In this document: positions 11,198 to 13,791 of the stretch, piece by piece | How positions within the stretch are numbered: position 1 is the stretch's first letter | How the letters are laid out: every line of letters starts with the position of its first letter | Assembly: GCF_000012805.1 (NCBI RefSeq) | Contig: NC_007484.1 | Coordinates: 2,880,001-2,912,000, forward strand | DNA length: 32,000 nt | Source of the DNA: Nitrosococcus oceani ATCC 19707 | GTDB taxonomy: Bacteria; Pseudomonadota; Gammaproteobacteria; Nitrosococcales; Nitrosococcaceae | Direction of reading: 5' to 3' | The notes under the pieces: generated by a model | Seen by the model: the letters and a program-made list of their open reading frames with translations, nothing else | Databases searched by the model: none | Told to the model about the DNA's origin: nothing | Program-made: the position numbers and the translations under genes

Positions 11198-11437
11198 ATG
11201 GCCAGACAAAGTATTTCTTTTACCCCACCCAATGATGCCTGGCTCAAAGCCCAGGTAGACAGTCAGGAATTTACTAGCAAGAGCGAAGTGGTGAATGATC
11301 TTATCCGCAAGGCCCGCAAGATTGAATTAATTCGCGCCAAACTGATTGCCGCTGAGCAGAGTGGGTTTTCCAACCAATCACCGGAGGAAAGGCTGGCGGG
11401 CTTCCACCAGAAAGCCCGGCAAGATGGGAAGTTATAG
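11198..11437 (+). CDS. parD: ParD-family (COG3609, RHH) antitoxin
   Basis: MARQSISFTPPNDAWLKAQVDSQEFTSKSEVVNDLIRKAR is the typical ParD/CC2985-type N-terminus. Its stop overlaps the start of the parE remnant. Confidence 0.85.
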   Translation: MARQSISFTPPNDAWLKAQVDSQEFTSKSEVVNDLIRKARKIELIRAKLIAAEQSGFSNQSPEERLAGFHQKARQDGKL

Positions 11438-11713
11438 GCTTTACTGAAAACGCCGAAGCGGATCTCTATCGCATTTGGTTATAGGGCCTTGAACATTGGG
11501 GCCTGGAGCAGGCAGACGCCTATTACGATGCGTTCATGCAGCATTTTGCGGCACTGGCAGAGAATCCCTTTTTAATACCCCGCCGTGGATGAACTCCGCG
11601 CAGGATACCGGCGCAGCGTGTGCGGCTCAGACAGTGTATATTACCGCATTGTGGGCGAAACGGTTGAAATCATGGCGATTATAGGCCGTCAGGATTTAGA
11701 GGCGTGGTTGTAA
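11424..11713 (+). pseudogene. parE: ParE toxin pseudogene (two frameshifts plus one nonsense codon)
   Basis: The conceptual repair reads MGSYRL/TENAEADLYRIWL*GLEHWGLEQADAYYDAFMQHFAALAENPFLIP/VDELRAGYRRSVCGSDSVYYRIVGETVEIMAIIGRQDLEAWL*. The lesions lie near 11440-11442, at TAG 11482-11484, and near 11578-11584. Confidence 0.8.
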
Positions 11714-11782
11714 GGCTGGGTATTGACCAGCCTTGGCGCCGGGGCCTTGCTGATGGGCGTGCTTACTTTTGTGGGACAGCTC

Positions 11783-11817
11783 GTAGGGCAGGAAAGCGTA
11801 GCGCATCCCGCTCTGCC
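11783..11817. repeat. REP-like palindromic unit related to 9459-9488
   Basis: gtagGGCAGgaaagcgtagcgcatcccgctCTGCC is roughly 70% similar to the 9459 unit. A T7 run follows at 11836-11842. Confidence 0.35.
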
Positions 11818-11871
11818 TTAATAACCTGCCGTGGGTTTTTTTATTGAGTCGTCTCGTGCCAAGATCTCTCT

Positions 11872-12270
11872 CTACACAACATCCTGATCGCGGGTATCTA
11901 CAAGATCATCGATATCCACTCCAAGCACCTTGGCGATCTGCTTGAGCGCTTTGACGGTCCCCTCCCTTTCTCCTTTTTCTATCATCGCTAGGTAGGATTG
12001 GCTTAATTCTGCCTGTTCCGCCAGATTGTGCTGAGTCAGGCCACGATAGATTCGCCATACTTTGATGGGGTTCTCGCCTTCCACCAGCCTCTTAACGACC
12101 TCGTGCGGCATCGCTTCCCCGCCAACAACCATTGCCTGATCAAAGGCGGCGACATCCTCCAGCATTTCTGCCTTTTCCTTTAGCGCCAAATATTCCTCGT
12201 AGGGCAAAACAGCCCATTCCGGCTTATCTCCACGCTTAATTAACGGCTTGATATCCAAATCCGATTGCAT
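11872..12270 (-). CDS. HTH (XRE-family) antitoxin-like protein with a Phd-like N-terminal segment
   Basis: From Met at 12270: MQSDLDIKPLIKRGDKPEWAVLPYEEYLALKEKAEMLEDVAAFDQA, followed by the HTH motif IYRGLTQHNLAEQAELSQSYLAMIEKGEREGTVKALKQIAKVLGV. The ORF stays open 33 codons further upstream to ATG 12369; see findings. Confidence 0.8.
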   Translation of the reverse strand: MQSDLDIKPLIKRGDKPEWAVLPYEEYLALKEKAEMLEDVAAFDQAMVVGGEAMPHEVVKRLVEGENPIKVWRIYRGLTQHNLAEQAELSQSYLAMIEKGEREGTVKALKQIAKVLGVDIDDLVDTRDQDVV

Positions 12271-12274
12271 GGGA

Positions 12275-12440
12275 TCTTGGAGTTTGCGGCTAAGTCTCGC
12301 TTGGCTGTTCCCGACAGCCGCGCTCGCCTTGCTGCAATTCGCGTTTCGCAGGCGTCCTTTGGCGGTCATAGGACCACCTCCAGTGGGTATACGCCTCCAC
12401 GCGCATCACTTCCGGTCCTCCCAACCGTAGCTAACCTTAA
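12275..12440 (-). ncRNA. Candidate TnpB omega-RNA (reRNA) scaffold spanning the tnpB 3' end and right end
   Basis: The position follows the known architecture of TnpB guide RNAs. Visible stems are 12370-12375/12414-12419 (AGGACC/GGTCCT, bracketing the stop codon), 12374-12377/12383-12386 and 12303-12308/12314-12319. Boundaries are not determined. Confidence 0.4.
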
Positions 12441-13538
12441 AATATTTTTAGCCGCGTTAATATCGCGGTCATGGACTGACTTACAGTCCGAGCAGGTCCA
12501 CTGCCGCACTTTGAGCGGCATGGCTTTTTGCACTGCGCCACACGCCGAGCACGTTTTACTGGTCGGCGCCCACCTATCCACTTGCCTAAACGCCCGGCCA
12601 TACCACGGGGCTTTGTATTCCAGTTGCCGCTTGAGTTCGTGCATGCCTACATCGCCCAAGGCTTTAGCGATGCGCCGGTTGGCCATCATGCCCCTGACGT
12701 TGAGCGTTTCCATGGCAATGAACCCCGCCTGGCGAATCAGTGCCGTGGTGAGTTTGTGCAACCAGTCCTGACGGGTGTTGCTCACCCTGGCGTGGGCCTT
12801 GGCGACCCTTACTCGCTGACGATGCCAGCGAACGCTTCCCTTGCGCTTGCGGGATAGCCTGCGCTGGGTTTTGGTGAGTAGACGCCGATAAGTGCGTAGG
12901 TGCCGTGGGTTGCCTGACTTCCAGCCCTCGGAGGTCACCACCACATCGCTTATACCCACATCAATACCGATACCGTTTGGCTTTCGCGGTAGGGGTTGGA
13001 GGGTTTCCTCGCACATGAACGAAACACAATAACAACCCGCGCAGTCCTGGGTGACCGAGACCATTTTGGGTATACCCTGGGGCTTACGAGACCATTTTAA
13101 ACTGAGTGCCCCAAGCTTGGGGAGTTTAAGCAACTTGCCCGCTCGATACCTTCCCGCTACCTGGCGTTGGTCAAGTTGATAGCGGATGCTTTGAGCGTGG
13201 GCTCTTTTTTTGAAACGGGGATACTTCGCTCGCCCTGCAAAGAAGTTTTTAAACGCGGTGTCCTGGTCTCTAAGCTTTTGATTGAGTGTGGTCGCGCTGG
13301 CCTCTTTTAACCAACCATAGGCCGCCGTCTTTTTTAGCTTGGTGAGGTGCCCGCTAAAGTCAACGCCGCTAACATGCTTGTCGTGCAGCCGGTATTGACG
13401 GCCACGCCAGGTCAGACAGGTGTTCCAGACCCACCGGGCATGGCCAAACTCCATCGCGAGTTGCTGGCGCTGGACGCTCGTGGGGTAAAAGCGGAATGTA
13501 TAGGACCGCTGAAGGGTGGTAGAATCGCATTGGGTCAT
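12366..13538 (-). CDS. tnpB: IS200/IS605-family accessory protein TnpB (RNA-guided RuvC nuclease), apparently intact
   Basis: Starts MTQCDSTTLQRSYTFRFYPT. RuvC residues are GIDVGISD (D), IAMETLNV (E) and HDRDINAAKNI (D). The zinc finger is CSACG...CSDCK. I place the start at Met 13538 rather than at the 454-aa ORF start. Confidence 0.92.
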   Translation of the reverse strand: MTQCDSTTLQRSYTFRFYPTSVQRQQLAMEFGHARWVWNTCLTWRGRQYRLHDKHVSGVDFSGHLTKLKKTAAYGWLKEASATTLNQKLRDQDTAFKNFFAGRAKYPRFKKRAHAQSIRYQLDQRQVAGRYRAGKLLKLPKLGALSLKWSRKPQGIPKMVSVTQDCAGCYCVSFMCEETLQPLPRKPNGIGIDVGISDVVVTSEGWKSGNPRHLRTYRRLLTKTQRRLSRKRKGSVRWHRQRVRVAKAHARVSNTRQDWLHKLTTALIRQAGFIAMETLNVRGMMANRRIAKALGDVGMHELKRQLEYKAPWYGRAFRQVDRWAPTSKTCSACGAVQKAMPLKVRQWTCSDCKSVHDRDINAAKNILRLATVGRTGSDARGGVYPLEVVL

Positions 13539-13646
13539 GGCCTCAATACTCGTCCTATTGGGTCGGTGGCAAGTGGCTAGGGGGTACTGATAATACTGCC
13601 TAGCCGCGCTTATTCTACCGCCAATTTTGCCCGCCGCAGACATCAC

Positions 13647-13724
13647 TTTATGCGGCCCTCGCGATCGATGCGCCACTTCGTTTCGCACGCTCGCTGGGGG
13701 GGGTCGTCGTACATCCCTGTATTC
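13647..13724 (-). repeat. Copy B of the module shared with 1611-1690, located 110-190 nt upstream of the tnpB start
   Basis: The reverse complement of 13647-13704 is gacccccccagcgagcgtgcgaaacgaagtggcgcatcgatcgcgagggccgcataaa, about 90% identical to 1634-1690. Confidence 0.8.
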
Positions 13725-13772
13725 CTTCATGCCACTCCCTTCTTCAACTTGGATTAAGCAGCGTGGCAGGGT

Positions 13773-13791
13773 GCTCTCTTGATCAAGCAGA
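13773..13791. promoter_or_regulatory. Near-perfect 19-bp palindrome, a possible operator
   Basis: CTCT-CTTGATCAAG-c-AGAG has a central perfect 10-bp palindrome (13777-13786). It lies just outside the inferred left end of the tnpB element and is followed on the minus strand by nothing but that element and the HTH gene. Confidence 0.35.

Follow-up and report, generated by a model that had tools for sequence, protein, structure and literature searches.

The closest described counterpart of the locus analysed here is the TnpB/reRNA system of ISDra2 from Deinococcus radiodurans (PDB 8H1J, 8BF8; PMC8612924, PMC10097598), which displays the same domain order, the same triad and a CCCC zinc finger, with catalytic residues D191/E278/D361 and zinc ligands C331/334/351/354 (PMC10097598). 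The two systems are also alike in a scaffold that overlaps the 3' end of the gene, predicted in our case, in a flank-derived guide and in the absence of a target duplication. In Geobacillus stearothermophilus, the ISGst families and the PATE-like elements likewise comprise numerous copies that lack tnpA but have their ends in common; one set of ends serves several TnpB subfamilies, and minimal elements without a gene occur as well (Meers et al., PMC10055086). About 75% of tnpB genes are found without a nearby tnpA, and gene-less PATE-like derivatives are known (PMC10055086). IS605 of Halanaerobium hydrogeniformans has been described in stages of decay, with a PATE-like element and with traces of recombination among its tnpB copies, features that recur here (PMC7290912). 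A literature search retrieved no paper on a Nitrosococcus TnpB.

The window, that is the whole 32-kb stretch of DNA analysed, comprises C1:2880001-2912000 of Nitrosococcus oceani ATCC 19707, with C1 being the main contig; coordinates are window positions unless marked C1, and the genome searched consists of contigs of 3,481,691 and 40,420 bases. In surroundings of small toxin-antitoxin genes and a pilin gene, the minus strand carries at 12277-13728 an insertion of 1452 bp that begins with GAAGG and ends with CTCCAA. A tnpB gene whose product has HTH, RuvC and zinc-finger domains, the absence of tnpA from the element and, at the level of the family, insertion 3' of a retained short motif without duplication characterise the locus, with a probability of roughly 0.88, as a whole non-autonomous IS200/IS605 (IS1341-type) insertion sequence and a member of a multicopy mobile family. 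Assignment to IS607 was rejected; both resolvases of the genome are located far from any tnpB match, which argues against this class, and profile NF038280 reaches 177 bits versus a cut-off of 350. An Rfam search returned no relevant family, and a scan for promoters and terminators gave results at chance level only.

The limits of the element emerge from copy comparison and empty sites. Similarity to other copies ceases at 12277 and 13728, and the close copies are all alike from the left junction through the terminal CTCCAA. In a sister species (G002), the empty orthologous site of the copy at C1:1454848 shows the host bases through the TT that precedes GAAGG, followed directly by the right flank, and the empty site of the copy at C1:537613 has the identical register. 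From this register it follows that the element spans 12277-13728 without target duplication, so that the ends at 12275 and 13724 proposed in a previous sequence-only reading had to be corrected. Placing the left boundary at 13729, which would go with a TTGAA-like motif, was considered and rejected, as the empty sites retain only two bases before GAAGG. A further empty site is present in this genome at C1:1539255; another strain is occupied there by an element of a second subfamily with a divergent 55-aa ORF (L120:1808-1975), and this difference is movement or loss within the species. Comparison with empty sites, which the earlier reading had proposed, thus fixed the ends and the motif by way of sister copies and yielded none for the locus itself, neither in three sister species nor among the N. 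oceani assemblies reaching the junction, all of which are occupied.

The non-coding left end (13539-13728, minus strand, 190 nt; DNA fold z -1.9) contains a short hairpin at +8 to +19 (13721-13710) and a longer imperfect hairpin at around 13694-13662. Across 44 left ends, bases +10, +11 and +13 to +15 never change, a constancy favoured by the search pattern itself, and the first nine bases otherwise vary. Subterminal hairpins occur at both ends, on the left with compensatory variants and on the right in the form of helices 5-6 of the predicted RNA scaffold. As separate observations, a left-end stretch at about 13645-13630 is complementary to the final right-end bases 12277-12292, a pattern seen across family copies with 9-12 nt in several, 19 nt in one and 7 nt as the longest exact match here, and a palindromic unit of about 28 nt is found within the end hairpins of several copies at either end (C1:1685157, C1:1513532, C1:942317, C1:1739353, C1:3097774 and L022).

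The tnpB gene (12366-13538, minus strand; ATG at 13538, stop at 12366) encodes a protein of 390 aa with the Pfam domains PF12323, PF01385 and PF07282 (HTH_OrfB_IS605, OrfB_IS605, TNB). Profile NF040570 recognises the protein with 318 bits (cut-off 100), while the best profile match, NF038281 with 355 bits, yet remains below its own cut-off of 425. RuvC motifs begin at residues 191, 275 and 356, and CxxC pairs at 330 and 349. The protein aligns with ISDra2 TnpB (PDB 8H1J) at E 1e-70, whereby D191/E278/D361 correspond to D193/E277/D359 and the zinc ligands C331/334/351/354 to C330/C333/C349/C352, which confirms the RuvC D-E-D residues and both CxxC pairs that had been read from the sequence. The triad that distinguishes a TnpB OMEGA nuclease is hence present, and the alignment with ISDra2 TnpB leaves the catalytic residues intact. 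The start at 13538 is in line with close homologues of 390-396 aa and with the ATG context at which two retrieved loci equally begin. Upstream, the frame continues without a stop as far as an ATG at 13730 created by the junction, a continuation interrupted by a stop in 5 and open in 8 of 13 related copies; on account of the broken copies, 13538 is taken as the start. This upstream ATG, composed of host flank and the first element base, has a purine-rich stretch ahead, and the left end (13539-13730) is stop-free in its frame. Between tnpB subtypes, 86-93 synonymous codon changes face 52-53 non-synonymous ones, an excess as would be expected of a tnpB gene under selection. The protein looks intact as an RNA-guided nuclease and is predicted to be able to supply the family with TnpB.

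The element is not alone in its genome. A BLAST search over the 1452 bp identified copies at 98.3% and 96.2% identity and five further copies at 76-84%, and a census of end motifs counted 34 paired left and right ends, approximately 14 of them belonging to long elements (1.2-1.5 kb) and 20 to gene-less elements (109-333 bp). The latter, for example at C1:1457180-1457477, C1:430632-430929 and C1:3097649-3097774, have the same left-end hairpins and the same right end. In many of them the 3' scaffold is still present, and these could furnish TnpB with guides in trans. With some 34 two-ended elements in the genome and tnpB without tnpA being the commonest form, the solo arrangement to which the sequence-only reading had drawn attention is nothing special. 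Another left end of the family, with no right end to match, lies in the window at around 1611-1690 on the plus strand. The family also extends to three sister species and a sister genus. Beyond these, the left-end pattern gave five matches in the genome contig collection, none near a tnpB, and the right-end pattern in 400 genomes of the class stayed near the control level, with all six loci checked devoid of tnpB. A metagenome scan with a 19-mer of the right flank produced chance matches only; viral contigs contained no relatives, and plasmids only proteins of <60% identity with no family member at the DNA level. Independent insertions of the family have hit the same pilin/toxin-antitoxin region elsewhere, inside the Uma2 gene in a sister species (L031; G002:C1:597197-600663) and inside a homologous antitoxin gene in a metagenomic relative (L118), which suggests a hot spot.

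The family inserts directly 3' of the motif C-N-T-Y without duplicating its target. Among 50 left ends of this genome, which include a few false matches, C is found at -4 in 43, T at -2 in 44 and a pyrimidine at -1 in 46, and in four relatives the respective numbers are 26, 24 and 25 of 28; the motif occurs about once per 30 bases of this genome. The copy under study deviates: its target-motif position (13729-13732, minus strand) reads GCAT, off consensus and lacking one base relative to CATT or CATC. In another strain, the same one-base-short junction precedes a family member, and the empty form of that site here is CATT, so that one-base loss at the junction happens, although the junction lies in a draft sequence and could be a sequencing slip. 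That the TnpB protein itself uses C-N-T-Y would be in keeping with the pattern of ISDra2 and ISGst. From the residues Y52, S56, K76, F77, Q80, T123 and N124, which contact the motif in ISDra2, only S56 is kept, with G58, A82, T83, N86, D123 and Q124 aligned to the other six positions; such replacements would fit a motif other than that of ISDra2.

The right end harbours a predicted omega-RNA (reRNA) scaffold of six helices (12277-12427, minus strand) overlapping the last approximately 20 codons of tnpB. The sequence-only reading had placed clean stems at about 12275-12440. As a single sequence, however, the region folds no better than its shuffles (z -1.0), and such stems are therefore weak evidence; what stands is their conservation across 12 distinct copies. 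The stop codon is enclosed by one helix (12378-12361), falling within the loop and the 3' arm, as the sequence-only reading had it. In these copies 99.5% of cells pair and 9 of 36 pairs are changed on both sides (reached by 1 in 500 shuffles) versus 32-46% pairing in slid controls, with figures inflated by the relatedness of the copies and a structure derived from the same alignment. A pseudoknot is predicted between 12399-12395 and 12282-12278, where the bases are complementary and invariant in 13 sequences, matching the terminal pseudoknot arrangement of the ISDra2 RNA (PMC10097598). The claim of a scaffold that extends from the 3' end of tnpB to the right end is thus supported by covariation, and conservation of the last approximately 150 nt is as would be expected of an omega-RNA scaffold, although part of the constraint may act on the DNA end. 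At the sequence level, the structured right end that accompanies a TnpB OMEGA nuclease is present. By analogy with ISDra2 (PMC8612924), the predicted guide comprises the first 16-20 nt of the right flank (12257-12276, minus strand). No second target for this guide was found in the genome, as the best match after CNTY, 10 nt, is at chance level, and a search for self-targeting guides among 50 right ends gave a longest match of 12 nt, no more than chance predicts with 233,678 motif sites.

The host DNA that would provide the guide has a history of its own. The 33 nt next to the element (12244-12276, minus strand) are an internal remnant of a RelE/ParE-family toxin gene (PF05016), which aligns with the middle of the toxin gene of a sister species at a score reached by 0 of 1000 and 0 of 2000 shuffles. 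In the sister species, the homologous antitoxin is preceded by an 85-aa ParE/RelE toxin; here the remnant is joined by a deletion to approximately the fifth codon of an HTH (XRE-type) antitoxin body (11872-12243, minus strand; 70% identical to the antitoxin of the sister species) that has lost its own start codon. The fusion renders the predicted guide toxin-derived, so that the proposed origin from adjacent host DNA is retained by analogy, while its source is the toxin remnant and not the 5' region of the antitoxin gene. Deprived of its own start, the antitoxin can be read in an open frame both from 12270 and from the ATG at 12369, which overlaps the stop of tnpB. The latter gives a frame of 165 aa (11872-12369, minus strand), which crosses the right end and the toxin remnant before entering the antitoxin and is identical in other N. 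oceani assemblies; putatively, the element could supply a coupled start for the antitoxin. On the other side, the left flank is not significantly similar to the 5' half of a toxin gene (436 of 1000 and 690 of 1000 shuffles) and has no Pfam match. A 19-bp palindrome near 13773-13791, previously read as a possible operator, is not borne out, since outside the element only a core of 10 bp is perfect (13778-13787) and 27 such palindromes occur in the window versus about 31 expected by chance. Further along, a toxin-like gene after a ParD-type antitoxin (11424-11713, plus strand) is broken by stops and frame shifts, and 11777-11820 is occupied by a short REP-like repeat of which the genome contains more than ten copies.

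The copy itself is a mosaic. Compared with the copy at C1:1454848, nt 1-1335 are without differences and all 24 differences reside in the last 117 nt, leaving a right end about 20% different that is nearer to other subtypes (88-91%). In strain GCA_000740735.1, an element stands behind the same left junction with a flank identity of 97.8%, whereas its first 564 bases are only 87.7% identical, a comparison that relies on the end of a draft contig and is backed by a second assembly for only the first approximately 30 element bases. The same junction with a diverged body indicates that the insertion predates the split of the lineages and that the body has since been exchanged, and, together with the identical 1335 nt beside a divergent right end, that copies recombine. 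With its off-consensus motif and its presence in two diverged strains, the copy looks older and less mobile than had been assumed. As the copies exchange bodies while keeping right end and guide, near-identity need not mean recent transposition. The same strain (L169) has an AbrB/PIN pair followed by glycosylation genes in place of the pilin/antitoxin block, the region being rearranged between strains.

Gene conversion in place and a deletion hybrid both fit the body exchange. In the second case, a variant history within the best explanation, the copy would have arisen by deletion between two neighbouring copies and its flanks would never have formed one site. Such a deletion would at the same time have taken away the 5' half of the toxin gene; in its favour are a right flank that begins inside this gene, a left flank without toxin similarity, different closest relatives of the 5' part and the last 117 nt, and another family copy in the same region of a sister species. 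On the other hand, the different body behind the same left junction in GCA_000740735.1 requires body replacement anyway, and one base added at the junction gives G-I-D-P versus A-L-D-P and A-V-D-P of the toxins, which makes decay in place possible. The deletion hybrid is a candidate to which we assign clearly less than even odds.

For the mobile family to which we assign the element, one would by default expect the mobiliser to be a Y1 enzyme acting in trans. The absence of a Y1 or serine transposase gene from the window, stated in the earlier reading, was confirmed, with genome-wide searches placing all matches elsewhere. The genome encodes five clear Y1 transposases, two of them in genes free of stops, with intact proteins at C1:427806 and C1:1664405, and the three inspected tnpA-tnpB elements have other ends. 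No Y1 locus was found within the ends of this family in five genomes, no tnpA was seen at 28 left-end loci, at 29 tnpB loci or beside six metagenomic or draft homologues, and one genome with family copies (G004) has no Y1 above the cut-off. If work on ISDra2 and ISGst can be transferred, the tnpB transcript would yield an omega-RNA of approximately 150 nt plus about 16 nt of flank, a Y1 transposase acting in trans would excise the element with rejoining of the empty site, and TnpB would cut the rejoined site for recombination to restore the element. The present copy is, on our reading, an older insertion common to two strain lineages and located next to a toxin-antitoxin operon in decay. With the consensus motif lost from its left junction, it has probably become less capable of excision or renewed cutting, and its body has been swapped with other copies by recombination; its TnpB could still be supplied to the family. 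The combined proposition that TnpB recognises the degenerate C-N-T-Y as a relaxed-motif nuclease of 390 aa and that the family is moved by a transposase never located within the element appears unlikely. Slightly less credit still is given to the idea that the family is moved not by a standard IS200-type Y1 TnpA but by a different enzyme, such as a REP-associated HUH transposase or an uncharacterised one. The consistent lack of tnpA at the 28 and 29 loci, the other ends of the tnpA elements of the genome and a target motif more degenerate than TTAC or TTGAT speak in its favour; however, asymmetric ends, the retained 5' motif, hairpins and the missing duplication are typical traits of Y1 peel-and-paste, most tnpB genes have no linked tnpA, and an autonomous partner may be lost or rare, with five genomes searched whole. 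Several copies of the REP-like repeat of 11777-11820 cluster round C1:836417, where a weak Y1-like ORF might encode a REP-associated transposase.

Domestication as a TldR-like regulator that would control the antitoxin or some other host gene under RNA guidance is highly improbable, since, although guide and antitoxin frame overlap at the 5' end of the latter and the N. oceani assemblies seen share the insertion, none of the three catalytic residues is altered, near-identical copies reside at unrelated sites, sister species show no synteny and the genome contains no guide target elsewhere, so that the inactivated RuvC, fixed gene context and guide matching a host promoter of such regulators are not encountered. 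A mobile rather than domesticated element, as the sequence-only reading had it, is upheld by copies at many unrelated sites and by empty sites in a sister species and this genome.

What has been gained are exact ends, the C-N-T-Y motif from approximately 75 junctions and three empty sites, and a scaffold supported by covariation, which is enough for trying this TnpB as a compact nuclease, possibly with a relaxed motif. Differences to the described systems accompany the likenesses. Unlike ISDra2, the element is without tnpA and follows C-N-T-Y instead of TTGAT. The cognate tnpA of the ISGst families has been found and is active, while none was found in five genomes here. Elements of Halanaerobium hydrogeniformans keep remnants of tnpA, and the swap is seen here at one locus in two strains. 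Among these systems, the element is real but ordinary, with tnpB alone being the commonest IS200/IS605 form, and its degenerate motif, missing mobiliser and body swap are modest points of interest.
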